A stretch of DNA of 64,000 nt from NCBI GenBank assembly GCA_050290065.1, contig JBNKGY010000001.1, forward strand, positions 16,103 to 80,102, in the 5' to 3' direction. How positions within the stretch are numbered: position 1 is the first letter of the stretch; each line of letters begins with the position of its first letter. The notes under the pieces are model-generated. The model searched no databases and was not told the origin of the DNA. It worked only from the letters and a program-made list of their open reading frames with translations. Below, piece after piece: positions 21,736-42,686 of this stretch. The DNA comes from Marinilabiliaceae bacterium (GTDB lineage: Bacteria; Bacteroidota; Bacteroidia; Bacteroidales; Marinilabiliaceae). Both the position numbers and the translations under genes were made by a program.

Positions 21736-23430
21736 ATGAAAATTAAATTAAACATTGCACAAAAGTTATTAGCTGGATTTGGATTAATATTATTTACAAT
21801 ACTAGTAAATGGAATTTCGACCTATTTTACTTTACATAACAGTAGATCACTAAGTAATAAGATTACTGGTGTTTATAGCCCTTCAGAGCAAAATATTACA
21901 CATTATAAGGATCTGATTAATAGTTCAAAAACACTGATGAAAAGTTGGGTTTTTGTTGATCGTCAACCAGGTACTGCTGATAAGGTTAGATTAGAAAATT
22001 TAATTTCAGAGGAATATCCTAAATTAGTTGAAGGATTAAATAAAATAAAAGTGAATTGGTCACAGAAAGATCAGGATACTTTTGATTTGGTAGTGCATAA
22101 AACAGATTCTCTTTTTGTTAAAGAACGATATGTAATGTCAAGTCTTAATTCCTTCGAGGCATATGATGATGTGATGGTAATTTTTGAGGTTGAGCCGATG
22201 GTTCAGGAAGATGGAGAAATCATAAACCTCGGTAATGAAATTATTAATGATTTAACCGTTCTTGGTGATAAATTTAATAAGCAAAATTCAGATTCACTTC
22301 AAGAAATGGATGATTCCTTTGGTTGGTTCAACGGATTTGTAGTTATCATGGTTATTGTTCTGGTTTGTATTTCAGTGTTAATAGCATATGTATTATATAA
22401 TAGTATTGTAAAGCCTTTAAATAAGGGTGTTACATTTGCACAAACCATTGGTAATGGTGATTTAACGGTAGAATTGGATATCAATCAGGAAGATGAGATT
22501 GGGTTGTTGGCTAAGGCATTAAATACAATGGCATCTAATTTAAAGGGAATTGTAATTTCTATTAAAGAAAATGCAAACGACTTAGTTAGCAGTGGACAAA
22601 ATGTTAAAAGTAGCTCATTGCAACTATCAAAAGGTTCAGCAGACCAGGCAGCATCAGCCGAAGAAGTTTCAACATCAATTGAAGAAATGGTTGCTAATAT
22701 TGATCAGAATACTGATAATGCTGTCCAAACAGAAACCATTACTGTGGAAACCGCAAAAGATGTGAATGTGGCTGATAAATTATCTTCAGAGGCTGCCTCT
22801 TCAATGAAGAGTGTGGCTGAAAAAATCACTATTATCGGAGATATTGCTTTTCAAACTAATATTCTAGCTTTAAATGCTGCTGTTGAGGCAGCTAGAGCAG
22901 GAGAACATGGTAGAGGTTTTTCTGTAGTTGCAGCTGAAGTGCGTAAATTGGCAGAAAGAAGTAAAGTAGCTGCAGATGAAATACATAGCTTAGTAAATGG
23001 TGGTTTAAAAGTTTCTCAAGAGGCAGGAGAGAAATCAAGGTTATTAGTACCTGATATAGAAAAAACAACCCAATTAATAAAAGAAATATCAGCAGCAAGT
23101 CTTGAACAAAAGACTGGAGCAGAGCAAATTAATATGGCAATGCAGCAGTTAAATTTAATTACTCAAGAAAATGCCTCTTCTTCTGATGAACTTACACAAA
23201 GTGCAGAACAATTATCTGAATTAGCAGATCGATTAAAAGAAGCAGTAAGCTTCTTTAATATTGGAGCTGAAGAAGAATTTATTAGTACAAAAGAAAGCGA
23301 AGAAGAAGATAAGGTAATCGATAAAAAAAACGAAGAGAAATCAAAAGAATCCAAAAAGGCTAGTTTTTCTTCAAAACGAAGTGATATTATAAATCTTGAT
23401 AAGGATTTTGATAACTATGAAAAATTTTAA
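21736..23430 (+). CDS. mcp: Methyl-accepting chemotaxis protein (2 TM, periplasmic helical sensor, HAMP, 34H-like signalling domain, C-terminal pentapeptide)
   Basis: [40 protein letters not shown]; HAMP GDLT..DEIG.L..A.N.M; ends NYEKF. Confidence 0.96.
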
Positions 23431-23779: not shown

Positions 23780-24145
23780 ATGGCTAAAACAGTTCTTATT
23801 GTTGACGATTCAGAAAGCATCAGGGAAGTAGTAAACTTTACCCTACAAAACGAAGGATATAACGTTTTGGTTGGCGTTGATGGTGAAGACGCTTTACAAT
23901 TCCTTGATGGTAGAAGTATCGATATTATTATTACTGACCTTCATATGCCGAACTTAGACGGATTAGGACTAATTCGTAAAGTTAGAGAAATTGAGGAGTA
24001 TAAGCATATCCCAATATTGTTTTTAACAACTGAATCTCAGGCAGGAAAAAAAATGGAGGCTAAACAAGCAGGGGCAACAGGTTGGATTATTAAACCTTTT
24101 GTTCCGGCAAAATTGCTTAGTGCTATTTCAAGAGTATTGAGATGA
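23780..24145 (+). CDS. cheY: CheY response regulator
   Basis: LIVDDSESIR, IITDLHMPNLDG, FLTTES, WIIKPF. Confidence 0.92.
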   Translation: MAKTVLIVDDSESIREVVNFTLQNEGYNVLVGVDGEDALQFLDGRSIDIIITDLHMPNLDGLGLIRKVREIEEYKHIPILFLTTESQAGKKMEAKQAGATGWIIKPFVPAKLLSAISRVLR

Positions 24146-24537
24146 TGGAGGAAATAAAGAAGTCTTTTATTAAAGAATCAATAAAAGATTTGGAACAAAT
24201 AGAATGCTCTCTGGACTTTAGTGAAGGAGTAAATGTTGATCAAAGTCTTATTGAGAAGGTTTTCACAACTACACATAACATTAAAGGAACAGCTCCAATG
24301 TTGGGTATTGATAATTTAGATCATATTGTCAAACCTATGGAATTGGTTTATGGAGAACTTCGTAATGGAAAACTTCTTTATTCCGAGGATATTGTTATAA
24401 ATACAAAAACACTAATTCCCGTTATAAAGTCGGAATTATGTACTAATCAACAACATACAATTGACTCAAAAGACGTTAACCAATCGTTACGTTTTTTTGA
24501 TTCTCTAATAGCAAAAAAAATGCATAAGCATGATTGA
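24142..24537 (+). CDS. Stand-alone Hpt protein resembling the CheA P1 domain
   Basis: F..ES..DL..IE, VF...HNIKGTAPMLG aligns with IFRAMHSLKGGGAMFG of the adjacent CheA. Confidence 0.75.
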   Translation: MMEEIKKSFIKESIKDLEQIECSLDFSEGVNVDQSLIEKVFTTTHNIKGTAPMLGIDNLDHIVKPMELVYGELRNGKLLYSEDIVINTKTLIPVIKSELCTNQQHTIDSKDVNQSLRFFDSLIAKKMHKHD

Positions 24538-27513: not shown

Positions 27514-28383
27514 GTGGAAAAGGCCAACACATACTCAAAGGATTTAGATTGCTTTAAGGCTGAATTATCTACCAAAGATTTTGAAGCTTTTAGTCAATTT
27601 ATTTATTCTGAGTTTGGTATTAAAATGCCACCTGTAAAAAGAATAATGTTGCAAGGGCGTTTACTGAAAAGGATAAGAAATTTAAATATGAATTCCTATT
27701 CAGAGTATAAAGACTATTTGTTCAGTAAAGAGGGACAGAAGGAAGAGATATTTAATTTTTTGAATGTTGTAACCACTAATAAAACTGATTTTTTTAGAGA
27801 ACCAATACATTTTGACTATTTAAAGAGCTCTGTTTTGCCGGAATTTCTTTCAAAAGATAATAGAGAACCTTTTAAAATTTGGAGTGCAGGTTGTTCAAGT
27901 GGTGAAGAACTGTATACCCTAGCTATTACTCTGAATGAATTTAAAAGTATAAATGTAGGCTTTAATTATTCCATGTTAGGGACTGATATTTCTCAAAATG
28001 TATTATCAAAAGCAGCAAAAGGTATCTATCCACTAAATAAGGTGGATATTATTCCAATAGATTTAAAAAAGAAGTATTTATTGAAAAGCAAGGATGCCAA
28101 CAACCAAACTGTAAAGGTACGGCCAGAGCTTCAGCGAAATTTGAATTTAAAATATCTGAATCTTATGGATTCCAGTTATTCAGCTATAAATGAAAAATTT
28201 GACGCAATTTTTTGTAGAAATGTATTAATATATTTCGACCGGGCGACACAGGAAAGTGTGATTAATAAATTAAGTTCTTATTTAAAGCCAGGAGGATATT
28301 TTTTTATAGGACATTCTGAATCGTTAACAGGAATGAATGTTCCACTAGAACACATTAAACCAACTATTTTCAGAAAAAAATAA
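27514..28383 (+). CDS. cheR: CheR methyltransferase (chemotaxis type)
   Basis: TTNKTDFFRE..HF, IWSAGCSSGEE.Y, GTDIS, CRNVLIYFD, GHSESL. GTG start. Confidence 0.95.
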   Translation: MEKANTYSKDLDCFKAELSTKDFEAFSQFIYSEFGIKMPPVKRIMLQGRLLKRIRNLNMNSYSEYKDYLFSKEGQKEEIFNFLNVVTTNKTDFFREPIHFDYLKSSVLPEFLSKDNREPFKIWSAGCSSGEELYTLAITLNEFKSINVGFNYSMLGTDISQNVLSKAAKGIYPLNKVDIIPIDLKKKYLLKSKDANNQTVKVRPELQRNLNLKYLNLMDSSYSAINEKFDAIFCRNVLIYFDRATQESVINKLSSYLKPGGYFFIGHSESLTGMNVPLEHIKPTIFRKK

Positions 28384-28400: not shown

Positions 28401-29303
28401 ATGAATAATTTATCAGACAGACAATTACTTAAGGAGCTTAGACAAAGGCTTGAACATGGTAAGAATAGTGAGAAGGAAATTAAGGAATTGACTCACGAAT
28501 TACAAAGTGTGTCAAAAAAGCTTAAGGATTCAGAAGCACTTAAGAGTCATTTTATATCAAATATCTCAAATGAAATAGTAAATCCGTTTACTTCGATATT
28601 AGGACTGTCAAAGGCAATTCTATCTGTTGAAAAGCATGATTGGAAAAAGGTTGTGTCAATGGTAGCATTGATTCATTCAGAAGCATTCAACCTTGATTTT
28701 CAATTGAAGAATATTTTTGTGGCCGCTAAAATTGAAGCAGGTGAAATAGCCCCTAATATTGCTAAGGTTAATATTAGAAGCTTATTACAAACGGTTGTTG
28801 ACTCTTTTAATATAATTTCCCGTAAAATGGGAATTTCAATTGATATTCAATTTAATATTGAACATGGTTTTGGAAAGAATTTTTACTTTAAAACTGATTC
28901 AGAAAAACTTAAGCTTATCCTTAGTAACCTTATTAATAATGCATTAAAATATAGTTATAAAGATAGTAAGGTAATTATTTCAATATGGCTGGATGATGAA
29001 GATGTTTTGAAAATCTCTGTTCAAGATTATGGAACCGGAATTTCTGAAAAAAATCAGAAAACAATATTTGAACGATTTAAAAGATTAGATACCGGTATCA
29101 ATTCAATAAATCGTGGTCATGGTCTTGGTCTTTCAATTACAAAAGCATTATTGGATACATTGAGTGGAGATATTGAAATAGCGAGTCAAAAAGGTGAAGG
29201 ATCAACCTTTACTATAAGTGTGCCGGAGGCCAAAAATATTGTGGACGGATTTAGTGGAGAAGGAAATGATATATTCTTTGATGAAGAGGACGAGATTTTT
29301 TAA
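28401..29303 (+). CDS. Sensorless HisKA-HATPase kinase-like protein lacking the phospho-acceptor His
   Basis: H-box reads FISNISNEIVNP (N57 in place of H); N box NLINNALKYS, G1 DYGTGI, F box IFERF and G2 GHGLGL are intact. Confidence 0.8.
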   Translation: MNNLSDRQLLKELRQRLEHGKNSEKEIKELTHELQSVSKKLKDSEALKSHFISNISNEIVNPFTSILGLSKAILSVEKHDWKKVVSMVALIHSEAFNLDFQLKNIFVAAKIEAGEIAPNIAKVNIRSLLQTVVDSFNIISRKMGISIDIQFNIEHGFGKNFYFKTDSEKLKLILSNLINNALKYSYKDSKVIISIWLDDEDVLKISVQDYGTGISEKNQKTIFERFKRLDTGINSINRGHGLGLSITKALLDTLSGDIEIASQKGEGSTFTISVPEAKNIVDGFSGEGNDIFFDEEDEIF

Positions 29304-29313
29304 TGGTGAATAG

Positions 29314-29784
29314 ATGAATCAATATTTACAACATTTTTTATATCCATCCTCTCTTTTCGTCAGCAAAGAACCTTTTTTGGTTAAAACCATATTAGGCTCG
29401 TGTGTTGCAATATGTTTATGGGATTCACGATTGAAAATAGGAGGTATTAATCATTACATGCTACCACATTGGAATGGTAATGATTTAGCTTCGCCAAAAT
29501 ATGGAAATATTGCAATAGACAAGCTAATTGATAAATTGCTTTTTCATGGATCAAGAACCGAAGATTTGCAAGCGAAAATATTTGGAGGTGGAGAATTAAT
29601 GCAAACAGGAAATTCAAGAACATTAATTGGAGAACGAAATATTCGTGTGGCCAGAATAATGCTTGAAGAAAAAAATATTCCAATTGTTGCTTCCAGTACA
29701 GGTGGAAAAAGAGGTCGAAAAATCATATTTTTTACCGATACTGGAGAAGTGAGACATAAATTATTGGATAAAAAGAACCCATAA
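29314..29784 (+). CDS. cheD: CheD chemoreceptor glutamine deamidase
   Basis: TILGSCVA, GGINHYMLP, KIFGGG, IGERN, GG..GRKI.F. Confidence 0.93.
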   Translation: MNQYLQHFLYPSSLFVSKEPFLVKTILGSCVAICLWDSRLKIGGINHYMLPHWNGNDLASPKYGNIAIDKLIDKLLFHGSRTEDLQAKIFGGGELMQTGNSRTLIGERNIRVARIMLEEKNIPIVASSTGGKRGRKIIFFTDTGEVRHKLLDKKNP

Positions 29785-29875: not shown

Positions 29876-30955
29876 ATGCGGATGAAAAAAATTCGGGTAT
29901 TAGTAGTTGATGATTCAGCTGTAGTTAGACAAAGCCTTTCAAGTATTTTAGGTTCGGACCCAGAAATAGAAGTGATGGGTACAGCGGCTGACCCTATTAT
30001 TGCTGTAAAAAAGATTATGAAGGAGATACCTGACGTTATTACGTTAGATATCGAAATGCCAAGAATGGATGGGTTAACATTCTTGCGTAAAATTATGTCA
30101 CAACACCCAATTCCTGTTGTGATTATCTCATCACTTACAAGCGAAGGTACAGAGGTAGCGATGAAAGCACTTGAGTATGGTGCTGCCGAAATTATTGGTA
30201 AACCGGCGATGAATGCCGCTAAATTTATTAATGAATCAAAGATTGTGATCTGCGATGCTGTTAAAGCAGCAGCGCATGTGAAATTATCGAGAAAGAAAAT
30301 TAAAGTACCGCCTACCAATATAGAAGTAAAACCTAAATATAGTGCTGACGTTATTCTTGAAAAAGCTTCCGTGTCAAATAGAATATCGGTAACAGATAAA
30401 GTTATTGTATTAGGAGCTTCAACAGGAGGAACTGAAGCCATCAGATCCTTTCTTAAAAATCTACCCGCAAAAATGCCTGGAATTGCAATTGTTCAGCATA
30501 TGCCTGAAGGATTCACAAGATCATTTGCTAACAGTTTAAATAACATCTGTAATTTAGAAGTTAAGGAGGCAGAAAATGGCGATAAACTTTATCAAGGTAG
30601 AGTTCTTATTGCGCCGGGAAATTACCATATGCTGTTAAAAAGAGTAGGTAAAGAGTATTTTGTGGAGGTAAAAGAAGGACCTTTGGTAAACAGGCATCGT
30701 CCGTCTGTGGATGTGCTATTTAGAAGTGCTTCAAGATATGCAGGTAATAATGCAATGGGTATTTTGTTGACCGGAATGGGAAATGATGGTGCAAAGGGGT
30801 TGTTGGAACTTAAGGAATCAGGTGCAGAAACAATAGCCCAGGATGAACAAAGTTCTGTTGTTTATGGTATGCCAAAGGAAGCAGCAAAACTTGGAGCTGC
30901 CAATCATATTTTAGGATTAGAGCAGATTGCTCCTTTCCTAATAAAGTCTCTTTAA
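29876..30955 (+). CDS. cheB: CheB methylesterase (REC plus esterase)
   Basis: [18 protein letters not shown]; triad motifs [19 protein letters not shown]. Confidence 0.96.
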
Positions 30956-31061: not shown

Positions 31062-32939
31062 GTGAAAAAGCTTGATTTAAATAACATATTAAGAAAATAT
31101 ACTTTTAGAGGAATTCTTCTTGGATTTTTTATTGTTCTAATTGTGTTTCTGTTGAATTTAAGTTCAACTGTTTTTATGCAAACAAACAGGACGTTTGCTG
31201 ATATGTTATATCTGTTCCCAGGAATGTGGATTTTATTGGTCTTACCTTTTATTACCGGACTTTTTGGATATCTGTTTGCATTAAATTTTGTAAAAATAAT
31301 TAGGAAGCAACGAAAATACATTAAAAGTGAAACCAAAAGAGCAGATAAGGTTCTAAAATTTATTAATAATTTACGTCAGGGTAATTTTAGCAGTACAGAG
31401 TTAGTTACGGATAAAAAAGATCAATTAAGCAGATCACTACTAAAATTAAGAGATTATCTTGTTAAAAGTAAAAACGAACAAGAACAAAGAAGAATAGAGG
31501 AAGAACAACGAAATTGGGTAACTCATGGGGTAGCTCAATTTGCTGAAATACTGCGTAAGAATAATGATAATCTGGAAGAACTTTCATTTAATATTATTAG
31601 TTACCTGGTTAATTACTTAAATATTAATCAGGGTGGTTTTTATTTGTTAAATGAGAATGCAAAAGGAGACAGGTTCTTTGAATTATCAGCATGTTTGGCT
31701 TTTGATAGAAAAAAATATGCAGATAAAATAATTCAATGGGAAGAAGGTTTAATAGGAAGATGTGGGATTGAAAAAGGTACTATTTATATGACTGATGTAC
31801 CCAATGATTATATTACAATAACATCTGGTTTAGGTCAAACCAATCCGTCTGCCATTCTATTAGTTCCTTTAAAGGTGAATGATGAAATTTATGGAGTTAT
31901 CGAGTTGGCTTCATTTTCTGAGTTTCAACCTTTTGAAATAGAATTTGTTGAGCGTACGGCAGAAAGTATTGCATCTACCATATCTACGGTTCAAATCAAT
32001 ATTCAGACAACAAAATTACTTCGTGAAACTCAAATTCAAGCTGAAAGAATGGCTCAGCAGGAAGAAGAGTTACGTCAAAACCTTGAAGAAATGCAGGCTA
32101 CTCAAGAAGAGTCTGATCGTAGAGAAGTTGAAATGAAAGGTATTCTTGAAGCTATTGATAACTCAGCTATTAGTTGTGAGTTTGCTGTGGATGGATCATT
32201 GATTTCGGTTAATCAACTATTTTTACAAACATTCAAATATCTTCCTGAAGAAATAGAAGGTCAGAATTTAAAAATATTGATTTTTCAGGATGATGTAGAA
32301 GACCTGAGTAAAACGCTTTCTGAACTTAAAGGAGGGCATAATTTTAAGGGAAGAGTAAGAAGAAGAACAAAACTTGGAGAAGAAATATTTCTGCTTACAA
32401 CATATACACCTGTAATAGATAATCAAGGAGACATTATCAAGATTTTGAGTCTCGAAAATGATGTTACAGATCAAGTTTACATGGAAGAGCAAATGAAAAG
32501 CTCCAAAGAGGAGCTTGGAAAAATGCTGGAACAAGCCAGAGACGAGATGAAAGAGCAGTTTAAAGAAATTGAAGATGTTAAAATTCGAAACGAAAAAACT
32601 CTTGAAGGTGCTCTTGATGCAATCATCACAACAAATGAAGAGGGGATCCTTGAATTTTTTAATGCAGCGGCAGAAAAACTCTGGGGATATGAAAGAAATG
32701 AAGTGTTGGGAGAACATATCTCCCTGTTATTTTCTGATGATACCGCTAAGAATGATCAATTTGTGAAGGCCTATGTTACAACTGAAGAATCTAAAATTAT
32801 AGGGGAAAGAAAAGAAGTACCAATAAAGAATAAATTTGGAGATGAAATACCTGTTTTATTTCTTCTTTCTGAGGCTCAGGTTGGAGGGAATAAGTCTTTT
32901 ACAGCGTTTATTCAAAATGTAGAAGTAGAGTTATTTTAA
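31062..32939 (+). CDS. Membrane GAF-coiled coil-PAS-PAS protein with no enzymatic output domain
   Basis: Two TM segments; GAF (EGLIGRC..EK, TSGLG..P, LLVPL, GVIELAS); QQEEELRQNLEEMQATQEE helix; two PAS-like repeats (N.AAEKLWGY); ends VEVELF. Confidence 0.8.
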   Translation: MKKLDLNNILRKYTFRGILLGFFIVLIVFLLNLSSTVFMQTNRTFADMLYLFPGMWILLVLPFITGLFGYLFALNFVKIIRKQRKYIKSETKRADKVLKFINNLRQGNFSSTELVTDKKDQLSRSLLKLRDYLVKSKNEQEQRRIEEEQRNWVTHGVAQFAEILRKNNDNLEELSFNIISYLVNYLNINQGGFYLLNENAKGDRFFELSACLAFDRKKYADKIIQWEEGLIGRCGIEKGTIYMTDVPNDYITITSGLGQTNPSAILLVPLKVNDEIYGVIELASFSEFQPFEIEFVERTAESIASTISTVQINIQTTKLLRETQIQAERMAQQEEELRQNLEEMQATQEESDRREVEMKGILEAIDNSAISCEFAVDGSLISVNQLFLQTFKYLPEEIEGQNLKILIFQDDVEDLSKTLSELKGGHNFKGRVRRRTKLGEEIFLLTTYTPVIDNQGDIIKILSLENDVTDQVYMEEQMKSSKEELGKMLEQARDEMKEQFKEIEDVKIRNEKTLEGALDAIITTNEEGILEFFNAAAEKLWGYERNEVLGEHISLLFSDDTAKNDQFVKAYVTTEESKIIGERKEVPIKNKFGDEIPVLFLLSEAQVGGNKSFTAFIQNVEVELF

Positions 32940-32954
32940 ATTAAAAAATAATAA

Positions 32955-33797
32955 GTGGGGGACATAACATTTAAAACGTATTTAGAAGAGCTAAAGAAGC
33001 ATACACCATATAATTTTTGTGATTACTCAGACAATTCAATTCAAAGAAGAATAGATAAAGTATTGAAGGATCACAATATGGATATGGATCAGCTTTTGTA
33101 TAAAACAAAAACTGATGCGTATTTTGTTGAAAGCCTGGTTGATGAAATTACGGTAAACACAACTGAGCTTTTTAGGAATCCTGAAACTTGGGAATATTTA
33201 TATAAGAACGTATTACCACTTCTTAACAAAAAGAAAACTATTAATATTTGGCATGCTGGATGTTCAACAGGTCAGGAAGTTTATTCTAATTTGATATTGT
33301 TGAATGAATTAGGATTAATGGACAGGGTAAAAGTGGTTGCAACTGACATTAATCAAAAGGTGATAAGAGTTGCGAAAAATGCAGAATATAATTATAGTTA
33401 CAATAGTAGTTATATTGAAGCTTATAAAACTTTGATGGATAAAGTTAATCCAAAGGCTAATAAATTTGAATATTATTGTGATATAGATGAGCATTCAGAT
33501 GTTTTTAAATTCAAAAAATTTATTGCTGAGAAGCCTATTTTTAAAAGACATGATTTGGTAGCAGAACCAATTCCCTTTTATCAGAAATTTGATATCATAT
33601 ATTGTCGTAACGTATTAATATATTTTAATCCAGAGTTACAAATGAATATTGTCCGCAAATTCTTTGATAAGTTGTATGATGGAGGAGTATTAGTTTTAGG
33701 TTCGCATGAGGCATTACATGGTTTTTTTAAAACCAGATTTATTAAGCACGGAATGGTCTATACAAAAAGTAATACATTTCATTTTAAATATAAATAG
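32955..33797 (+). CDS. cheR: CheR-family methyltransferase (intact motifs)
   Basis: ITVNTTELFRNP, IWHAGCSTGQEVYS, ATDIN, FDIIYCRNVLIYF, GSHE. Confidence 0.9.
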   Translation: MGDITFKTYLEELKKHTPYNFCDYSDNSIQRRIDKVLKDHNMDMDQLLYKTKTDAYFVESLVDEITVNTTELFRNPETWEYLYKNVLPLLNKKKTINIWHAGCSTGQEVYSNLILLNELGLMDRVKVVATDINQKVIRVAKNAEYNYSYNSSYIEAYKTLMDKVNPKANKFEYYCDIDEHSDVFKFKKFIAEKPIFKRHDLVAEPIPFYQKFDIIYCRNVLIYFNPELQMNIVRKFFDKLYDGGVLVLGSHEALHGFFKTRFIKHGMVYTKSNTFHFKYK

Positions 33798-33800
33798 AAA

Positions 33801-34607
33801 ATGGCAGTTGTTCCTACTATTTACGATATCAGGGAAATAACACCTTTGTTAAAGGAGGTACTAAATATTGATTTGTATAATTTTACGTTGTCTTTTTTGC
33901 GTAGGAGATTTGCGTTTGTTTTTAGTCAGTTAAATATTAAAAGTGTAGAAGGATTTAAAGAAGATATTAAGAAAGGTAAATTAATTGATGAATTTAGCTA
34001 TGCTTTTTCTGTTCCTGATACTGAAATGTTTAGGGATCCATCATTCTGGAGAACCCTTAAGAATAAAATTTTACCTCAATTTGGAGAAAAGCCATTTAAT
34101 ATTTGGATGCCTGATTTGGTTTCAAATGAAGAACTTTTTTCATTATTAGTTATATTGGAGCAGGATAGGCTAATCGATCAAGTAAAGATTTATTGCAACG
34201 TGGATTGTTCATTAAGGTCATTAGAACTGAAGAAAGGTTCTATTAATGGCAAAAGTATAGAAATTTCCATGCAGAATTTTAAAAGATTAGAACTAGATAG
34301 TCAATTTGAAGATTACTTTACATATGATAATAAATTTATTTATATAAAAGAAGAATTACTTAAGAATATTGAATACATAAATGGTAATTTCTTTGTAAAC
34401 GGTCCGACAGAAAATATATCTTTTTGTTTATATCGAAATAGAATGATTTACTTTAATTTAAAATTACAACAATCAGCTGAAGAGGAACTAGTGAAATATA
34501 TAGAAAAAGGCGGGTTTTTAGCTTTGGGGATTAAAGAGAAAATCAGCCAATCTAATAGAGATTTATTTGATGAAGTTGACTCTAATGAACAAATCTATAA
34601 AGCTTGA
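33801..34607 (+). CDS. Degenerate CheR-like protein (probable pseudo-methyltransferase)
   Basis: Keeps TEMFRDPSFW and RN.MIYF...LQ, but the SAM loop reads IWMPDLVSNEE instead of IWxAGCSTGEE. Confidence 0.75.
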   Translation: MAVVPTIYDIREITPLLKEVLNIDLYNFTLSFLRRRFAFVFSQLNIKSVEGFKEDIKKGKLIDEFSYAFSVPDTEMFRDPSFWRTLKNKILPQFGEKPFNIWMPDLVSNEELFSLLVILEQDRLIDQVKIYCNVDCSLRSLELKKGSINGKSIEISMQNFKRLELDSQFEDYFTYDNKFIYIKEELLKNIEYINGNFFVNGPTENISFCLYRNRMIYFNLKLQQSAEEELVKYIEKGGFLALGIKEKISQSNRDLFDEVDSNEQIYKA

Positions 34608-34618
34608 TTAAACAATAA

Positions 34619-35194
34619 ATGAATAATAAAAGAGCGTCATATTATAAAGCAGTAGTAATTGGTGGTTCTGCAGGTAGTTTTTCAGTTGTATCAAAAATTT
34701 TGGCCAATATAAAACCTGATTTTGAATATCCAATTGTGGTATGTTTACATCGTTTAAAGCATATCCGTACAGGATTATTAGAAGGGCTTAAAATTAAATC
34801 AAAACTTCCGGTAATAGAGCCTTACGATAAAGATAGTCTCAAAGGTGGAAATGTTTATTTGGCACCTTCAAATTATCATATGTTTGTTGAGTTTGATTCA
34901 ACCATTTCATTGACGGGTGAGGATGTGTTAAATCATAGCAGACCATCGATTGATTATACTTTTATATCATCGGCAACTTCATTTCGTGAGAAAATGATAG
35001 GAATTTTATTAACAGGAGCTAATAAAGATGGTGCTTTGGGAATGAAGGAAGTATTTCATAAAAGAGGATATACAATAGTGCAGGATCCGAATACTTGTGA
35101 TGTAGATACAATGCCAAAATCAGCTCTTCAATTATTTAATCCAGATGAAGTATTATCGCCAGATGCAATTATTGATTTTTTGAATAATCTTTAA
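34619..35194 (+). CDS. cheB: Stand-alone CheB methylesterase (no REC domain)
   Basis: IGGSAGS (Ser), CLHR (His), TGANKDGA (Asp), SRPSID, QDP. Confidence 0.88.
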   Translation: MNNKRASYYKAVVIGGSAGSFSVVSKILANIKPDFEYPIVVCLHRLKHIRTGLLEGLKIKSKLPVIEPYDKDSLKGGNVYLAPSNYHMFVEFDSTISLTGEDVLNHSRPSIDYTFISSATSFREKMIGILLTGANKDGALGMKEVFHKRGYTIVQDPNTCDVDTMPKSALQLFNPDEVLSPDAIIDFLNNL

Positions 35195-35198
35195 AGAG

Positions 35199-35957
35199 AT
35201 GTTAATGAATAAAAAAGAATTATTTCGATTATATATATTAGCAAGTCTTACGTTTACGATGGCCTTGATTAAGTATTTATTTGAGGATAAATATTTTATT
35301 TTTGAAATTTTGTCGTTCATACTTTTCTTAGGTATTATATATTTTGGAGATAAACTTATTAGGGTCAGAACAATTGAGAAAATTCAATTTAATAGAGAAA
35401 AAGAGAAGATAAATAGTAGTTATGAAGAAAAGATAAATCAATTAAATAATACGATTGAGCAATTAACAAAGGAGCAATCAGAACGACTTATCTTAGCTAA
35501 TGAAGTTGAATTAATTGGAGATAAAATCAATGATAGTATTAATAATATACAGCATAAGGATGAGTTGGCAAATCAGTTGTTAATTCAATTTTCTAAATAT
35601 TATGAAATTGGAATAGGAATATGTTATTTATTGTCAGAACATTCTGGAAAATTGAGCGTAAAAGGTGTCTATGGAATTCTGGATGAAGAAAAACCGACAG
35701 ATGTTGAAGTAACTGATGGATTACATGGACAATCAATTTCTGATAGAAAACCAATCATAATCCAGGATATTGATGAGAACTATTTTAATATTGAGTCTTG
35801 TTTGGGTTCTTCAAAGCCTAAGCATTTGTATTTATTACCAATTACAAAAAATGAAACCGTTATTGGTTTAATTGAATTAGCTACATTTAAAATCATTAAT
35901 ATTGAAAAGCATTGGCAAATAATCAATGATAAAATTGCAAATGTACTTATCTCATAA
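35199..35957 (+). CDS. Membrane coiled-coil-GAF protein
   Basis: Two TM segments, then a coiled coil and a GAF (DGLHGQ..., ESCLG..KP, LYLLPI, GLIELAT). Confidence 0.75.
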   Translation: MLMNKKELFRLYILASLTFTMALIKYLFEDKYFIFEILSFILFLGIIYFGDKLIRVRTIEKIQFNREKEKINSSYEEKINQLNNTIEQLTKEQSERLILANEVELIGDKINDSINNIQHKDELANQLLIQFSKYYEIGIGICYLLSEHSGKLSVKGVYGILDEEKPTDVEVTDGLHGQSISDRKPIIIQDIDENYFNIESCLGSSKPKHLYLLPITKNETVIGLIELATFKIINIEKHWQIINDKIANVLIS

Positions 35958-35966
35958 TGTGTTAAC

Positions 35967-38576
35967 ATGTTGATGAAAAGAATGATTAAGAACATTAAAA
36001 AATATATGGATTTCTCTATCCTTCAGGAACGAGATCGCTTTTTTATTATTATTAGTGTTATACTAGTTTTGTTATTGGTATGGGCAGGATTTATAAATTT
36101 TACTGGTTATCTGTTTACAATAGATTCAATTCTTAGTATTCATACTTCATGGTTAACTTGGTTTATTGATGCAATCATAGCTTTAATTCCTGTTACTTTT
36201 GTTGTTTTAATTAATTATGATCGTGAGACAAAGAAAAAATATAAAAAGGAAATAACTCGTTTAAAAGAAGGATTAAATTCTAACATTCAAATTGCGAACT
36301 TAATACGTAAAGGTGACTTCAATTCCATTTTAAATTATAAAAGTGATAATTCTGAAACTCTAGTTAGTCTTGCTAAAGATCTGCTTGAAACCAATCAGAA
36401 AGAGGAAGAGTTAAGATGGATTACAAAAGGAAAAGAACTCATCAATGATATTTTGCGAACATACAGATCTATTGATGAACTATCCATTGAACTTCTTAAA
36501 GGTATCATTACCTATAGCGGCGGTGCGCAGGGGGCATTTTATATATTAGAGGGAGATAAATTAGTTAGTCGGGCAACCTATGCTTTTAATAAACAAAGGT
36601 TTGTAAAACAAGAATATCATATTGGGAAAGGATTAGTCGGTCAGGTTGCATTCGAAAAGCAAATGATATACAGAACTGAAATTCCTGACGATTATTTTAC
36701 AATTACCTCTGGAATATTAGGCGATCAAAAACCAAGAAGTCTTGTCATATTGCCTTTATTGCAAGAGGAGGAATTGCAAGGAATAATAGAACTTGGATTT
36801 TTAAATGATCATTTTCCAACTTATAAATTAAATTTTGCAGAGGAATTGAGTAGTATGATTGGGCGAACCATTTATGCTCAAAAAATAAATGCTAAAACGG
36901 AGTATCTATTAAAAGAGTCTCAGGAAATGACTGTTACTCTTAGGCATAATGAAGAAAAATTAAAGGAAAGTGCCCAGGAAATGATGATTGCCCAGGAGGA
37001 TTTGGAAAAATCAAATGAACTACTGGAAACGAAAATTCAAGAGGTTGAAAATGGAAGAAAGAGGTTAGTGGCCTTACTAACAAATGCCTCTGAATTTATT
37101 TCAATTTATGATGAAAACCAAAGATTATTATTCGAAAGTCCTTCAGTGAAAAGAATATTAGGGTATAATGATTCTGATAAAGTTTCCGGAATGGACCCCG
37201 ATATGTTAACACCTAGAGGCTATAGAACCATTAATAATTTATTTACATATTTAAAACAAACGCCTGGAGGAGAGAGTGTTGCACAATATTCATACTTAAA
37301 AAAGAGTGGGGAAAAATTGTTTCTTGAAACTAAAGGAAAAAATTTACTTCATGATCAAGCTATTAAAGGAATAATCTTTAATACTCAGGATATTACCGAA
37401 AGAATTAGAGCAGAGAAAGAAGAACGGATGAAAAGTCGGATGCAATCACTTTCCGAAAATTCTCCGGATATGATTATGCGTATCAACACTTCTGGTAAGT
37501 TAGTATATGCAAATCCTGCAGTTAGTAATTTTACAGGTATTCCTATAGGAGAAATAACAAAGAAAAGAGTTAATGAACTTCAGATTGATGAAAGATTTAT
37601 TGATTTTGTTAATCATGTTCTGGTAAAAGTTAAAAAGGTACATGAACAAATAAATGAAGAAATAGAAGTTATTTCTCAGTATGGTAACCAGATAATGGAA
37701 ATAAAAGCTATTCCTGAATTGAATTCTGATAAAATATTGGAGTCAGTTCTTTTTGTGGCTCATAATATTACAGAGGTTAAAAAGATTGAACAAGAGATCA
37801 AAGAAAAAAATAAAAAAATATCTGATAGTATCAATTATGCACAAAGAATTCAAACTTCGATATTGCCAGATACCAATTTTATACAACGGCATTTTCCAAG
37901 ATCTTTTATCTTTTATCGTCCCAAAGATGTTGTTAGTGGTGATTTTCCATGGTTCGTCAAAAAAGATGAAACTTTTTATGTTGCAGCCGTAGACTGTACT
38001 GGTCATGGTGTACCTGGTGCATTATTATCTTTTATAGGGTATTTCTTACTCAATAATATAGTTAATATTGATGATGGATTTAATGCTGCCCATATATTAG
38101 AACATTTACATCAAGGTGTTCGAACTACATTAAAGCAAAATGAAGAAGGTAATAATGGTCGCGACGGGATGGATTTGGCTTTATGTAAAATAGACAAAAA
38201 AAATAAAGTTATTCAATTTGCCGGGGCTCATAATCCATTATATTTGCTGAGAAAAGGAGAATTGATAGAATATAAAGGAACACGTAAGGGGATTGGAGGA
38301 AAACCTTTATTAAAAAAACGTGAAAAGGATTTTGAAAATCATGAAATCCAATATCAGGATGGGGATAAGATTTTTATTTTTTCTGATGGTTTACCTGATC
38401 AGTTAGGTGGAGAAAAAAGAAAAAAGTATCAATCTAAACGAATTAGGGAAGCGCTAACTGAAAAAGAAGATCTGACAATGGCTCATTTTTCTCGACATTT
38501 TTCATCTGATTTTTATGAATGGATGGGTGATGAGAAACAAGTTGATGATGTTTTACTTATTGGAATTGAATTGTAA
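35967..38576 (+). CDS. SiaA-like PP2C/SpoIIE Ser/Thr phosphatase with TM-GAF-coil-PAS-PAS input
   Basis: SINYAQRIQ.SILP, PKDVVSGDFPW, AVDCTGHGVPGA, DGMD, FSDG..DQ.GG, DDVLLIG. Confidence 0.9.
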   Translation: MLMKRMIKNIKKYMDFSILQERDRFFIIISVILVLLLVWAGFINFTGYLFTIDSILSIHTSWLTWFIDAIIALIPVTFVVLINYDRETKKKYKKEITRLKEGLNSNIQIANLIRKGDFNSILNYKSDNSETLVSLAKDLLETNQKEEELRWITKGKELINDILRTYRSIDELSIELLKGIITYSGGAQGAFYILEGDKLVSRATYAFNKQRFVKQEYHIGKGLVGQVAFEKQMIYRTEIPDDYFTITSGILGDQKPRSLVILPLLQEEELQGIIELGFLNDHFPTYKLNFAEELSSMIGRTIYAQKINAKTEYLLKESQEMTVTLRHNEEKLKESAQEMMIAQEDLEKSNELLETKIQEVENGRKRLVALLTNASEFISIYDENQRLLFESPSVKRILGYNDSDKVSGMDPDMLTPRGYRTINNLFTYLKQTPGGESVAQYSYLKKSGEKLFLETKGKNLLHDQAIKGIIFNTQDITERIRAEKEERMKSRMQSLSENSPDMIMRINTSGKLVYANPAVSNFTGIPIGEITKKRVNELQIDERFIDFVNHVLVKVKKVHEQINEEIEVISQYGNQIMEIKAIPELNSDKILESVLFVAHNITEVKKIEQEIKEKNKKISDSINYAQRIQTSILPDTNFIQRHFPRSFIFYRPKDVVSGDFPWFVKKDETFYVAAVDCTGHGVPGALLSFIGYFLLNNIVNIDDGFNAAHILEHLHQGVRTTLKQNEEGNNGRDGMDLALCKIDKKNKVIQFAGAHNPLYLLRKGELIEYKGTRKGIGGKPLLKKREKDFENHEIQYQDGDKIFIFSDGLPDQLGGEKRKKYQSKRIREALTEKEDLTMAHFSRHFSSDFYEWMGDEKQVDDVLLIGIEL

Positions 38577-38602
38577 CGTATACGAACTAAATATTATTAG
38601 TA

Positions 38603-39178
38603 ATGGGAAATGCTCAAGATAATCATAGTTTTCTGGATTTTGCTTACCAGCTGTACCGGACTATGAAAACGAATGAAATCAGTCTTGTTTATGAAGGAGA
38701 AGTAACTCAGGAGATTACAAAAACTTTTACTTCATTAACAGAAAAAAGTCTGGCAAAAAGTGAAGAGTCAAATGCTGTTCAGCGAAAAGTATTTAACGTA
38801 ATGGTTGAATGTTTACAAAATATTAGTAAACATGCCGATTCATTATCTGAAGATGATGAAAATGAACGCAGGGGAATTGTAATGGTTAGTAAAGGTGAAG
38901 ATAGCTATAAAATTATTACAGGTAATGTAATTAGAAATGAAAAAGTACCTGGTTTAAGAGAAAACCTGGAGCAGGTCAATTCTCTTGATAAGGAGGGGCT
39001 TTCAAAGTTATTTAAAACCCAAATGCGTGAAGGTAAAATTTCCGATAAAGGAGGTGCAGGTCTTGGTTTAATTGACATTGCAAAGAAAACAGGAAGTGTA
39101 CTAACATACCAGTTTAAAGAATTAAATGAGGAAGTATCATTTTTTATTCTTACATCTACAATTAAACGAAATAATTAA
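38603..39178 (+). CDS. SiaB-family (DUF6272-like) GHKL Ser/Thr kinase
   Basis: YEGE..Q, RKVFNVMVECLQNISKH, IITGN.I, GGAGLGLIDIAKK. Confidence 0.85.
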   Translation: MGNAQDNHSFLDFAYQLYRTMKTNEISLVYEGEVTQEITKTFTSLTEKSLAKSEESNAVQRKVFNVMVECLQNISKHADSLSEDDENERRGIVMVSKGEDSYKIITGNVIRNEKVPGLRENLEQVNSLDKEGLSKLFKTQMREGKISDKGGAGLGLIDIAKKTGSVLTYQFKELNEEVSFFILTSTIKRNN

Positions 39179-39203
39179 AAAACTAATATAAAATATCAAA
39201 ACC

Positions 39204-39584
39204 ATGGAAGTTATCAATATTCAAGGAACAGATGATACTCCTAATGTAATTTTAGATAAGGACAGCGGGAAATTTGAAATTTCTGGACGTTCATTACCAG
39301 AGGACGTAAATATGTTTTATGAGCCTATTATGAAATGGATAGATGGATACTCCGAAAGTCCTAATGAGAATACTGAATTTAATTTTAAGCTAGAGTACTT
39401 TAATACTGCATCTTCAAAAATAATACTGGATATTTTACTAAAGTTCGAAGAAATAGTTGAAAATGGTAATGATGTTAAAATCAGATGGCATTATCACGAA
39501 GAAGAGGAAGATATGCTTGAAGCTGGTGAAGAGTATGCAGATATAGTTGAAATACCATTTGAATACGAAGCTTACACTGATTAA
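39204..39584 (+). CDS. SiaC-family (DUF1987) phospho-switch protein
   Basis: T..TP.V, ISGRSLPED...FY.P, LEYFNTASSK (Thr68), W.Y...EEDM.E.GEEY. Confidence 0.88.
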   Translation: MEVINIQGTDDTPNVILDKDSGKFEISGRSLPEDVNMFYEPIMKWIDGYSESPNENTEFNFKLEYFNTASSKIILDILLKFEEIVENGNDVKIRWHYHEEEEDMLEAGEEYADIVEIPFEYEAYTD

Positions 39585-39614
39585 TACAAGATTACTTGTT
39601 GCAAACTTTAATTT

Positions 39615-42600
39615 ATGAGTGAAGAAATACTAAAAGCCCTTATGCAACTGTTTGGATTAATAGCCAAACAGGATGATGGAGTACAGGAAAGTGAAATAGA
39701 ATTTGTTAAAAACTTTTTGAAGCAGCAACTCACAGCAGAAGCTGTAGATGAATATTTCACGCTATTTCAGAAACACTCAAAAAATAAAAAAAGCAGTAAT
39801 TCAAATAACGATGGTAAGGTTCAACTTACCTCAATGAAAGATTCTGTTCGGATAATTGGAATCTGCAAAAAAATAAACAAGCAGCTTAATAAAGAGCAAA
39901 AGGTTGTTGTATTAGTGCGTATGTACGAATTAGTAAATGCTGATCGTAAATTTACTGATCAACGTATGGCTATTATCAATACTGCTGCCGATGTTTTCAG
40001 ATTCTCTGAGATTGAAAAGAAAAATATAGAGGCGTTTGTTATTAATGAAGATCTCAAAAATCTCGACTTCGAGAATTTATTAGCCATTACTGCAAATGAC
40101 AAACAAGGAGAATATAGAGAGCACATTCAGGCTAAAAAATTAGATGGAAGCATTCTAATATTAAGGGTGAAAAGTGCAGATTTATATTTTCTAAGATATA
40201 CCGGTACTCAGGAAATATTTTTAAATGGTTTATTATTAAGCCAAAGACGTATTTATCTCTTCCCCAAAGGAAGTTTTTTAAAGTTACCTGCAAGAGCACC
40301 TATTTATTATACTGATGTAGTTGGGCATTTTATGACTGACGCATCAACACCTAAAATCTCTTATATAGTTGAAAATTTGGGTTTTCAATTTAAAAATGGA
40401 GGAATTGGTTTAAGAGATGTTAATCTGGCAGAAGAACATGGTAGATTAATTGGTATAATGGGTGCGAGTGGTGCTGGAAAAACAACTCTGCTAAATGTTT
40501 TATCAGGAATTGAAAGCCCTAGTTCTGGTGAGGTTAGAATAAATGGTATAAACCTGCACAAAGAAAGGGAAAAAATTGAAGGCGTTATTGGACTGATTCC
40601 TCAAGATGATCTTTTAATCGAAGAACTTACTGTTTTTGAGAACTTATATTATAATGCAAAGTTATGTTTTAAGGATAAAGCTGAAGAAGAGCTTATTCAA
40701 ATGGTTAATGATACTTTGCAACATCTAGGTTTATATGCGCGTAAAGATTTAAAGGTTGGATCACCATTGAATAAAATGATTAGTGGAGGCCAACGTAAAA
40801 GGTTAAATATTGCGTTGGAATTAATACGAGAACCCTCCATTTTATTTGTTGATGAACCTACATCAGGATTATCCTCCAGGGATTCAGAAAATGTAATGAA
40901 CCTTTTAAGGGAATTAACTCTAAAAGGGAAATTGATTTTCGTTGTTATTCATCAACCCTCTTCAGACATTTATAAAATGTTTGATAAGATGTTTATCCTT
41001 GATACTGGAGGATACCCAGTATATTATGGTAATCCTAGTGAATCTCTAATCTATTTTAAAAGATTAGATGCTCAGATCAATAGTGAACAAGGTGAATGTC
41101 CCCAATGTGGTAATTTAAATCCTGAAATGGTATTTAATATCATTGATGCTAATGTAATAGATGAATACGGAAACTACACAAATAAAAGAAAAACCAGTCC
41201 TCCTGAATGGAATGAACATTATCTGAAAAATATTAAAATTCCAAAGGTAAAAGATGTGGAATCTTCGCCTCCTCGTTCTTTAAATATACCTTCGTGGTTA
41301 AAACAATTTAATATATATACGCTTAGGGATTTCTTTTCAAAGATATCGAATAAGCAATATATACTTCTTAATATTCTAGAAGCACCCATATTAGGGTTTA
41401 TATTGGCCTTTTTAATCAGATATATAGTAGACCCGGATTCAAATATTTACATTTTTCGCGATAACGAAAATATCCCGCCATATATTTTTATGGGTATTGT
41501 TGTTGCTTTGTTTTTTGGATTAATTGTAAGTGCAGAAGAAATATTTAAAGATGCTAAAATACTTAAAAGGGAAGCATTTTTGAATCTTTCCAGATCTAGT
41601 TATTTAGTTTCAAAGGTGTTGATTCTTTTTACTATTTCTGCAATTCAAATGGGTTTGTTTGTGGGAGTCGCAAATACTGTTCTGGGTATAAAGGAAATGT
41701 ATTTTGAGTTTTGGTTGGCTTTGTTTTCTGTTTCTGCTTTTGCCAATATTCTTGGATTAATATTATCAGCTTCCTTTAATTCTATTGTTACCATTTATAT
41801 TTTAATTCCTCTGGTAATGATTCCTCAGATGGTTTTGGGAGGTGCAATGTTTACTTTCGATAAATTAAATAGAGACATCTCAAGTGCCGATAAAGTACCT
41901 TTAATAGCAGAGTTTATGCCCTCAAGATGGATTTATGAAGGATTAATGGTAGATCAGTACAAAAATAATAAGTTTCAACAATTATTTTTTGATGTAGAAC
42001 AAGAAGAAAGTACTACCGATTTTAAGGTGGTGTATTATATACAAGAGCTTGAAGATATTTTAGATGAATGTGAGAATTACCTAACCAATGGCAAACCAGA
42101 AGAAGAGAGAGAAGATTTTATCTCAAATCTAAAATTGTTGAAAAATGAAATTGAAAATGAAAACCGCAGAATTAATGATATTCAATTTGTAAAGGTTGAT
42201 CAACTTTCAGAAGATCATTTTAATAATGATATAAAATCAGCTTTAGCTATTCATTTAGAAGCATTAAAAAATTATTATTCAGATCGTTTTTTTGCGGCTA
42301 GTACAAAAAAGGAGAAAATGATTAATCTGGCCATGAGAAAATATGGTAAAGAGAAATATAATGCCATAAAAGACATATACTTAAATGAAAGCATTGCAGA
42401 TATTGTAAGAAAAGTTTTTGAAAAAAATAAAATCCTTCGAGATGGAGATAGACTGATCCAAAATGTTGATCCAATATATCAGTTACCAGAATCAGAAGGT
42501 GTTTTTTCTTTTAGAACTCATTTTTTTGCGCCTAAAAAGTATTTCATGGGTCATTACTACGAAACGATATGGTTTAATATTGCAATGGTATGGTTATTTA

Positions 42601-42686
42601 CTATAGTTCTTTATATCATTTTGTATTTTGATTTATTACGCAAATCCTTTATTTTCATTGGAGAATTAAAATATCTTAAAAAGTAA
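39615..42686 (+). CDS. ABCG/White-like fused ABC transporter with TerB-like and FHA-like N-terminal region
   Basis: GASGAGKT, PQDD, ISGGQRKR, FVDEPTSGL, IHQP; ABC-2-type TM block (PLVMIPQMVLGG, PSRW.YEGL); N-terminal LF.LIAK.DD helical domain. Confidence 0.85.
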   Translation: MSEEILKALMQLFGLIAKQDDGVQESEIEFVKNFLKQQLTAEAVDEYFTLFQKHSKNKKSSNSNNDGKVQLTSMKDSVRIIGICKKINKQLNKEQKVVVLVRMYELVNADRKFTDQRMAIINTAADVFRFSEIEKKNIEAFVINEDLKNLDFENLLAITANDKQGEYREHIQAKKLDGSILILRVKSADLYFLRYTGTQEIFLNGLLLSQRRIYLFPKGSFLKLPARAPIYYTDVVGHFMTDASTPKISYIVENLGFQFKNGGIGLRDVNLAEEHGRLIGIMGASGAGKTTLLNVLSGIESPSSGEVRINGINLHKEREKIEGVIGLIPQDDLLIEELTVFENLYYNAKLCFKDKAEEELIQMVNDTLQHLGLYARKDLKVGSPLNKMISGGQRKRLNIALELIREPSILFVDEPTSGLSSRDSENVMNLLRELTLKGKLIFVVIHQPSSDIYKMFDKMFILDTGGYPVYYGNPSESLIYFKRLDAQINSEQGECPQCGNLNPEMVFNIIDANVIDEYGNYTNKRKTSPPEWNEHYLKNIKIPKVKDVESSPPRSLNIPSWLKQFNIYTLRDFFSKISNKQYILLNILEAPILGFILAFLIRYIVDPDSNIYIFRDNENIPPYIFMGIVVALFFGLIVSAEEIFKDAKILKREAFLNLSRSSYLVSKVLILFTISAIQMGLFVGVANTVLGIKEMYFEFWLALFSVSAFANILGLILSASFNSIVTIYILIPLVMIPQMVLGGAMFTFDKLNRDISSADKVPLIAEFMPSRWIYEGLMVDQYKNNKFQQLFFDVEQEESTTDFKVVYYIQELEDILDECENYLTNGKPEEEREDFISNLKLLKNEIENENRRINDIQFVKVDQLSEDHFNNDIKSALAIHLEALKNYYSDRFFAASTKKEKMINLAMRKYGKEKYNAIKDIYLNESIADIVRKVFEKNKILRDGDRLIQNVDPIYQLPESEGVFSFRTHFFAPKKYFMGHYYETIWFNIAMVWLFTIVLYIILYFDLLRKSFIFIGELKYLKK

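Follow-up and report, generated by a model that had tools for sequence, protein, structure and literature searches.

We will describe a gene found in a 64,000-nucleotide stretch of the genome of a Marinilabiliaceae bacterium (assembly GCA_050290065.1, contig JBNKGY010000001.1, positions 16,103 to 80,102 of the forward strand). This whole stretch is called the window below, and positions are counted from its first letter. The gene lies in a chemotaxis (che) cluster and codes for a protein with the domains of a HisKA-type histidine kinase, in which asparagine takes the place of the phospho-acceptor histidine; we will call it HKL. It represents a widespread, undescribed family of naturally His-less transmitters which are paired with CheD and belong neither to the CheC/CheX nor to the CheZ family. 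Full-text literature searches gave no description of this family. In genomes the constant partner of HKL is cheD rather than the che operon as a whole: the initial annotation, which presented the gene as a His-less kinase inside a che operon, missed this partner. By analogy with the pair CheC-CheD, HKL may be a nucleotide-binding, kinase-dead phosphatase for phosphorylated CheY (CheY~P) or phosphorylated CheB (CheB~P) which works with CheD; we give this reading about an even chance. The features of the gene, with the evidence for each of them in brackets, are the following.

28401..29303, + strand: HKL, a soluble His-less HisKA/HATPase_c protein of 300 amino acids (translation of the open reading frame without stops, Pfam, alignments to PDB entries, AlphaFold).
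28401..28535, + strand: N-terminal coiled-coil extension, residues 1–45, which runs into helix alpha1 of the DHp domain (AlphaFold helix, conserved Leu with heptad-like spacing).
28533..28625, + strand: DHp helix alpha1, which bears the H-box and is better conserved than any other part of HKL (columns of 145 representatives, alignment A1).
28569..28571, + strand: codon AAT for Asn57, which stands where the phospho-acceptor His would be (phmmer alignments, codon counts).
28572..28583, + strand: E58-I-V-N61, the HisKA phosphatase motif E/DxxT/N, with the acid at H+1 and Asn at H+4 (column counts; role of the motif from PMC3510030 and PMC7005713).
28641..28742, + strand: DHp helix alpha2, with Q101, N104, E94, L98, A108, A109, E112 and G114 (column counts, AlphaFold).
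28761..29231, + strand: CA (catalytic/ATP-binding, GHKL) domain, in which the boxes N, G1, F and G2 are found (Pfam HATPase_c).
29244..29300, + strand: disordered, conserved acidic/aromatic C-terminal tail, residues 282–300 (predicted local distance difference test, pLDDT, below 50; column counts).

The protein has the layout of HisKA kinases: a DHp domain formed by a helical hairpin and, after it, a GHKL domain of the ATP-binding type. In Pfam the HATPase_c domain scores 91.5 bits over residues 166–277. HisKA scores 19.1 bits over residues 48–114, which is under the cut-off of 26.9; a member of the family from Geobacter reaches 26.4 bits. There is also a weak match to HATPase_c_2 (SpoIIAB-like), with 28.6 bits. 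The kinase-type domains stand alone: the Pfam scan finds no sensor, transmembrane or other domain. This agrees with the initial annotation, which had also recognized the N-terminal coiled coil. In the AlphaFold model (mean pLDDT 77.7) a single long helix covers residues 6–75, a coiled coil that continues as alpha1, and alpha2 covers residues 81–112. An alpha/beta ATPase domain follows, in which the ATP lid (residues 224–240) is disordered, as is the tail. In a phmmer search of the PDB, HKL aligns over its full length with HK853, WalK and GacS. The top Foldseek matches of the model are DivL (4q20; E = 2e-18, TM 0.82) and complexes of HK853 with RR468. The model is closer to HK853-RR468 and DivL (TM 0.82) than to ATP-bound autokinase states (0.61–0.66), although this difference is weak evidence. 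GacS and RetS are also among the PDB matches, both by sequence and by fold. HKL is most likely a dimeric, soluble transmitter module of HisKA type.

The H-box of HKL, KSHFISNISNEIVNP, pairs residue for residue with that of GacS (7z8n), KSEFLANMSHEIRTP, and that of WalK (4u7n/5c93), FVSNVSHELRTP; it is thus clear that Asn57 occupies the position of the phospho-acceptor histidine. Translation and alignment bear out what had first been read from the AAT codon. A comparison of homologues, initially proposed as a check of this residue, gives a uniform answer. Asn57 is present in 120 out of the 120 best database homologues, which have 75–95% identity and come from many genera of Marinilabiliaceae. 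It is also found in 30/30 orthologue loci retrieved across the order, where the H-box KSHFISNI[ST]NEI[IV]NPF is nearly unchanged. We searched 201 genomes spread over the order Bacteroidales: 64 of them have an orthologue of about 300 amino acids, one each, with 36–82% identity. When 1.84 billion cluster representatives were scanned in full with HMMER, more than 140 distinct clusters of HKL size were obtained, with 36–55% identity. Among 145 HKL cluster representatives, on which the family counts given below are based, position 57 is Asn in 144 and Ser in one, and His in none. The codon of Asn57 is AAT in 80 and AAC in 73 of 153 distinct loci; as both are in use, selection acts on the amino acid at this position. 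Purifying selection on HKL is strong: the ratio of nonsynonymous to synonymous substitutions (dN/dS) with its closest relatives is 0.014–0.026, with saturated synonymous sites.

Two candidates were rejected during these searches. A single variant of the H-box with a D proved to be a spurious match in a non-coding frame, and the long open frames obtained in the search of the order are upstream non-coding read-through. If we leave aside two long kinases, which are unrelated, and a few fragments of smaller size, the 150 best representatives have a length of about 270–316 amino acids; none of the 150 is fused to CheD or to a receiver (REC) domain. Annotation pipelines have labelled these genes as 'sensor histidine kinase', 'HAMP domain-containing histidine kinase' or 'PhoR'. 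Since the acceptor histidine is missing and the HisKA score falls under the Pfam cut-off, the label of sensor histidine kinase is not appropriate for HKL.

Residues E45, K48, F51, S53, N54, N57, E58, N61 and P62 are each conserved in 91–100% of the family. Glu58 is found in 138 representatives and Asn61 in 143, so that the HisKA phosphatase motif is present. The residues around Asn57 had been considered non-canonical in the initial annotation. However NEIVNP is not a degenerate H-box: the E/DxxT/N motif has a second canonical form, with Asn at H+4, and CrdS of Myxococcus xanthus, which has H371-E372-I373-x-N375-P376, is an example of it (PMC3510030). The two proteins share the same motif in its Asn form, HEIxNP in CrdS and NEIVNP in HKL. 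The alanine scan of CrdS has shown that mutation of I373, P376 or I380 lowers its phosphatase activity too (PMC3510030). Their equivalents in HKL are I59 (122/145), P62 (145/145) and I66 (125/145). A shift of the acceptor to His50 was considered: this residue precedes Asn57 by seven positions, on the same face of the helix, and it is invariant in close relatives. Yet His is present at this position in only 68 of the 145 representatives (Asn in 34, Gln in 17), and there is no conserved His column anywhere else in HKL. In helix alpha2 we find Q101 and N104, which are polar, invariant and specific to the HKL family. To judge from helix geometry, they should lie level with N54, N57 and N61.

The ATP-binding boxes are all present, in agreement with the initial annotation: N (N176, N180, K183), G1 (D209-x-G211-x-G213), F (F223, R225, F226) and G2 (G239-x-G241-x-G243). 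Across the family N176 and N180 are conserved in 99%, D209 in 88%, F223, R225 and F226 in at least 93%, and the glycines of G1 and G2 in 93–99%. The residues equivalent to K183 and R228 touch the nucleotide phosphates in canonical kinases. These two positions are variable in the family as a whole: at position 183 we find K in 59 representatives and E in another 57, and at position 228 Q in 90. Both K183 and R228 are kept in the Bacteroidales clade, which includes the HKL of the window. The tail has the consensus G-N-E-F-F-F-D-D-D-E-x-I-F-COOH, which is kept across phyla. It is a possible short linear docking peptide, whose partner could be CheY, CheD, CheR or CheB.

The gene lies between cheR and cheD, as had been stated at first. 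Both neighbours were located with Pfam.

27514..28383, + strand: cheR, the usual 5' neighbour of HKL in Bacteroidota (Pfam).
29314..29784, + strand: cheD, which follows HKL after a spacer of 10 nucleotides and has an intact catalytic Thr25/Cys30/His47 (Pfam CheD).

The pairing with cheD was studied with a DNA pattern. The H-box K-S-x-F-x-S-N-[IV]-x-N-E-I-x-N-P was back-translated into a degenerate pattern, which was scanned over one genome per GTDB species and gave at least 120 loci; their phyla are those of NCBI. Among the matches listed, 89 loci are from Bacteroidota (Bacteroidales/Marinilabiliales, Cytophagales, Flavobacteriales, Chitinophagales and Sphingobacteriales), 9 from Thermodesulfobacteriota (Geobacter, Desulfuromonas and Trichlorobacter), 9 from Nitrospirota, 2 from Pseudomonadota (including Magnetococcales), and one each from Myxococcota and Spirochaetota; 9 are unassigned. 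In all the loci found by the motif alone which have downstream DNA (108/108), cheD lies immediately 3' of HKL on the same strand, with a median gap of 38 nucleotides; these loci come from Bacteroidota, Thermodesulfobacteriota, Nitrospirota, Magnetococcales and Myxococcota. The gene on the 5' side is cheR in 84 and cheB in 6 of the 107 loci that could be evaluated, and the order cheR-cheB-HKL-cheD is typical outside Bacteroidota. In a maximum-likelihood tree all 105 linked CheDs group together in one clade (support 94/90.9, one state change), and the Thr/Cys/His triad is kept in 105/105 of them. A single clade, an intact triad and a constant adjacency indicate that HKL and CheD have been passed on together and have stayed a pair across phyla; HKL has co-evolved with one clade of CheD. 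In the sample of the order, CheA is present in 64/64 genomes with HKL (Fisher p = 2e-38) and CheD in 62/64: the two exceptions correspond to a contig end and a fragmented assembly. For the most part, genomes of the order with CheA or CheD but without HKL are either incomplete assemblies or give weaker matches, which probably belong to other subfamilies.

The pair is similar to CheC-CheD of Bacillus subtilis and Thermotoga maritima. In both cases an accessory protein is encoded beside cheD and has the dyad Glu-x-x-Asn that marks catalysis in the CheC/CheX/FliY phosphatases. The logic proposed here for HKL is also shared: a CheY~P phosphatase coupled to a receptor deamidase. However the fold is wholly different. 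HKL has the GHKL/DHp fold, no Pfam match to CheC (PF04509) or CheX (PF13690) and a predicted nucleotide binding, and its linked CheDs form a clade of their own. We have compared the CheDs of 12 genomes outside Bacteroidota which have several che systems: the 14 linked ones are 47–61% identical to the CheD of the window, the 11 unlinked ones 30–41%. CheC adjoins 3/11 unlinked CheDs and 0/14 linked ones; CheC and HKL are mutually exclusive as partners of CheD at the level of the locus.

Two further arrangements of the pair were observed. Some clusters outside Bacteroidota (L076, L148, L059, L184/L194 and L192+L185) have two cheD genes, in the order cheR-cheD1-cheB-HKL-cheD2. The first is an ordinary cheD between cheR and cheB, the second belongs to the partner clade and stands behind HKL. 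The presence of a second, ordinary cheD in the cluster suggests that the paired CheD has a task of its own. In metagenome-assembled genomes of Geobacter (L118/L179 and L085/L183) HKL-cheD stands apart from any che cluster and is followed by HDOD and REC-GGDEF genes, so that in this genus the module may be linked to cyclic di-GMP signalling.

The whole cluster of the window has the order mcp-STAS-cheY-Hpt-cheA-cheW-cheW-cheR-HKL-cheD-cheB according to Pfam, where mcp codes for a methyl-accepting chemotaxis protein. Three more of its genes have to be considered as possible partners of HKL.

23780..24145, + strand: cheY, candidate substrate (Pfam).
24142..24537, + strand: stand-alone Hpt, which is no general partner of HKL (Pfam).
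29876..30955, + strand: cheB, with REC and methylesterase domains, candidate receiver substrate (Pfam, synteny).

CheY, with 59–92% identity across the families of the order, is better conserved than any other protein of the cluster. A few lineages (L028, L048, L110 and L148) have an extra REC gene directly 5' of HKL, which is compatible with a receiver-domain partner. Neither CheX nor CheZ was found in the genome of the window, 12 genomes of the same genus and 8 other genomes of the order, which gave one match to CheC; this match is among the 13 genomes of the genus, where CheC is practically absent. A hybrid REC-HisKA-HATPase-REC kinase of about 470–530 amino acids, which has its acceptor histidine (FLANMSHEIRTP), lies directly beside the che cluster, with single REC genes on its flanks, in several families of Bacteroidota (L005, L050, L097, L110 and L164); it is absent from the window and from most loci.

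With Asn in the place of the acceptor His, autophosphorylation would be permanently lost. The initial annotation had offered three roles for such a protein: pseudokinase, phosphatase or trans-acting kinase. A phosphatase fits best, given E58-x-x-N61 and the near-invariant I59, P62 and I66. We infer its activity, its substrate, the role of the nucleotide as a cofactor and a physical contact with CheD. The phosphorylated receiver would dock on the DHp helices just as on an ordinary kinase; CheY~P comes first among the candidates, followed by the REC domain of CheB~P. Asn61 would activate and position the hydrolytic water, assisted by Glu58 and by the amide of Asn57, which replaces the imidazole. 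HKL would then act as a phosphatase only. A cofactor, ADP or ATP, would fix the CA domain and the ATP lid in a state competent for receiver binding and phosphatase activity. CheD would bind HKL and either stimulate it or be sequestered, as in CheC-CheD. Such a contact would couple the level of CheY~P to receptor deamidation and adaptation.

In phosphatases of the CheZ and CheX/CheC/FliY types an Asn or Gln amide positions the water. The role proposed for HKL, a faster dephosphorylation of CheY~P, is that of these proteins and of the CheA3 phosphatase of Rhodobacter sphaeroides, although their sequence and fold are unrelated. The same positioning by an amide residue has been stated for kinases, and in HisKA kinases Thr or Asn is the activating residue, whereas His merely enhances dephosphorylation (PMC7005713). 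The DHp and CA fold of HKL is that of HK853-RR468 (T. maritima), EnvZ (Escherichia coli) and CrdS, which retain a nucleotide-binding domain as HKL does. In CrdS and HK853 the Asn or Thr at H+4 is needed for phosphatase activity only and the acid at H+1 for kinase activity only (PMC3510030). The CrdS mutant N375A loses its phosphatase activity, whereas H371A keeps most of it: CrdA~P has a half-life of 53.5 min without enzyme, 2.6 min with H371A and 0.7 min with the wild type (PMC3510030). A His-to-Asn mutant of NtrB/NRII, H139N, functions solely as a phosphatase (10.1101/122606). There the replacement is engineered; in HKL it is natural and invariant in a family of several phyla. ADP stimulates the phosphatase activity of HK853 and EnvZ by placing the CA domain and the lid on the receiver (PMC7005713), which provides a reason for a nucleotide pocket in a protein without autophosphorylation. 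HKL differs from HK853, EnvZ and CrdS in having no sensor or membrane part, no dedicated response-regulator gene and always a cheD beside it, and its role is a predicted one.

Several points weigh against such a phosphatase. The 95% conservation of Glu58 is not explained by a phosphatase of the CrdS type, in which the acid at H+1 serves the kinase only; Glu58-Asn61 would fit the ExxN dyad of CheX. The ATP site of the Bacteroidales proteins is intact, with K183 and R228 in place, and this would agree with a genuine use of ATP as well. CheC is also encoded in 9 of the 12 genomes outside Bacteroidota which bear the pair, so that HKL is not simply a stand-in for a missing phosphatase at the level of the genome. 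Some HKL-cheD pairs of Geobacter and Nitrospirota lie outside any che cluster; their substrate need not be CheY. Finally, according to a passage of PMC3510030 which cites earlier work, the phosphatase activity of PleC needs its histidine: the loss of His is not always tolerated.

Another reading, which we consider possible but rather unlikely, is a non-catalytic pseudokinase of the DivL type. The DHp domain would bind CheY~P as a sensor and pass the signal on by allostery, either to CheD, to CheA or to the receptor array, but would not hydrolyse the phosphate. DivL of Caulobacter crescentus has a kinase fold with its acceptor His replaced, by Tyr in this case, it works by binding a phosphorylated receiver, and it is the best structural match of HKL. 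The conservation of the H-box surface and of the nucleotide pocket fits this reading, and so does the strict pairing with CheD. However Asn at H+4 is specific for catalysis and is conserved in 98% together with Glu58, while a pure binding surface would need no dyad. DivL is also a different kind of protein: large, membrane-anchored, with multiple PAS domains, involved in cell-cycle control and with no link to CheD or to che genes. HKL has neither PAS nor membrane modules.

It is also conceivable, but doubtful, that HKL is directed to CheD and has no phosphatase role. The DHp bundle would mimic the bundle of methylation helices of the receptors and offer to CheD a belt of amides (N54, N57-E58, N61, Q101 and N104); it would inhibit or titrate CheD, or be deamidated itself. 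CheC binds CheD by receptor mimicry, according to the passage of PMC2577667 which cites Chao et al. 2006. In HKL five invariant Asn/Gln lie on the two DHp helices. The adjacency of cheD in every locus, its dedicated clade with an intact triad and the presence of a second, ordinary cheD in some clusters point in the same direction. Other features do not agree with it: the H-box departs from the receptor consensus [AS]-x-x-[EQ]-[EQ]-x-x-[AS], with mostly Arg at position 56 and Asn-Pro at 61–62; the conserved nucleotide pocket is left unexplained; and CheD is known to act on Gln, not on Asn. Equally doubtful, in our opinion, is a combination in which the H-box carries two signals. The DHp bundle would dock CheY~P and also present its amide belt (N54, N57-E58 and N61 on alpha1, Q101 and N104 on alpha2) to the dedicated CheD as a receptor-like substrate or pseudo-substrate. 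Deamidation, for example of Asn57 to Asp, or competition for CheD would couple the state of phosphorylation to receptor modification. The dedicated CheD clade with its intact triad and the second, ordinary cheD of some clusters are compatible with such a scheme. If true, this would be a new adaptation circuit derived from a kinase fold.

An active ATP-dependent kinase with another acceptor is improbable. It would phosphorylate Ser, Thr or Tyr on CheD, on the STAS protein or on HKL itself, or a His in trans. The intact N, G1, F and G2 boxes, the HATPase_c_2 match and the STAS gene in the same cluster can be quoted in its favour. However weak HATPase_c_2 matches are common in ordinary kinases, the positions of phosphate contact vary throughout the family, and there is no conserved alternative acceptor, as already discussed for His50. 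A search with tblastn, which has a limited sensitivity for such a small protein, detected no STAS gene in about half of the 20-kb loci and in the loci of most other phyla. From these sequence comparisons a Ser kinase acting on STAS appears weakened.

An inhibitor similar to RetS is very improbable. HKL would form a DHp heterodimer with a canonical kinase, such as the hybrid kinase found next to some clusters. Its presence there and the PDB matches with GacS and RetS would agree with this idea, but most loci, including the window, lack the hybrid kinase: the consistent partner of HKL is CheD, not a kinase. Even less probable is a split kinase, in which the CA domain of HKL would phosphorylate the free Hpt in trans, as CheA4 does for CheA3 in R. 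sphaeroides; this is one form which the trans-acting kinase of the initial annotation could take. A stand-alone Hpt and an intact ATP-binding domain are indeed encoded in one operon, where the Hpt gene overlaps cheY at its end as well as cheA at its start. However a free Hpt was detected only in loci of Marinilabiliaceae: in other families cheY abuts cheA, and in other phyla we found no Hpt. As HKL is conserved in families and phyla without Hpt, this cannot be the function of the family; split CheA-like kinases such as CheA3/CheA4 have an obligate separate Hpt partner, which is not the case for HKL. Finally, a sequencing error or a recent CAT-to-AAT mutation in an ordinary kinase, considered initially because the two codons differ in one base, has a negligible probability, as Asn is present in every orthologue examined, across phyla, with both AAT and AAC in use and a dN/dS of about 0.02.

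Some other features of the che region are worth a comment. The methyl-accepting chemotaxis protein of the cluster (21736–23430) ends, after a long charged linker, in a C-terminus which resembles the pentapeptide (NWETF type, x-[FWY]-x-x-[FWY]) by which CheR and CheB are tethered in other systems. After the cluster, in the region 31062–42686 of the window, we find a second set of CheR, CheR-like and CheB genes together with GAF proteins, a PP2C phosphatase and SiaB-like and SiaC-like genes. The che2 cluster of Pseudomonas aeruginosa (cheY2...cheD-cheB2) likewise adjoins siaABCD; the proximity of che and Sia genes may be ancient. The genome of the window also has a second, distant CheA (34% identity), located outside the window (contig C42:14140-16110). 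The genome contains one HKL and one cheD, hence the second CheA system lacks the HKL-cheD module. In its gene order and content, with cheD between cheR and cheB, the operon of HKL corresponds to clusters of the F7/F8 type with cheY-cheA-cheW-mcp-cheR-cheD-cheB, such as Che2 of P. aeruginosa, cluster III of Vibrio cholerae and F8 of Vibrionales. To our knowledge the described clusters of this type have no kinase-like gene before cheD. Some of them carry a STAS gene (10.64898/2026.05.11.724241).

Chemosensory pathways need to remove the phosphate from CheY, yet CheZ, CheC/CheX/FliY and phosphatases of the CheA3 type are missing from many systems, including those of these gliding Bacteroidota. 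If the reading of HKL as a phosphatase is true, a His-less kinase fold bound to cheD in five phyla or more would add another, rather common way of removing the phosphate from CheY~P. The HKL family comprises more than 150 sequence clusters at 50% identity, and HKL is found in about a third of the genomes sampled in the order. It would then account for many cheD genes which have no cheC, and it would be the natural counterpart of the His-to-Asn kinase mutants made in the laboratory, which are only phosphatases. The kinase labels which HKL genes now carry mislead the censuses of two-component systems.

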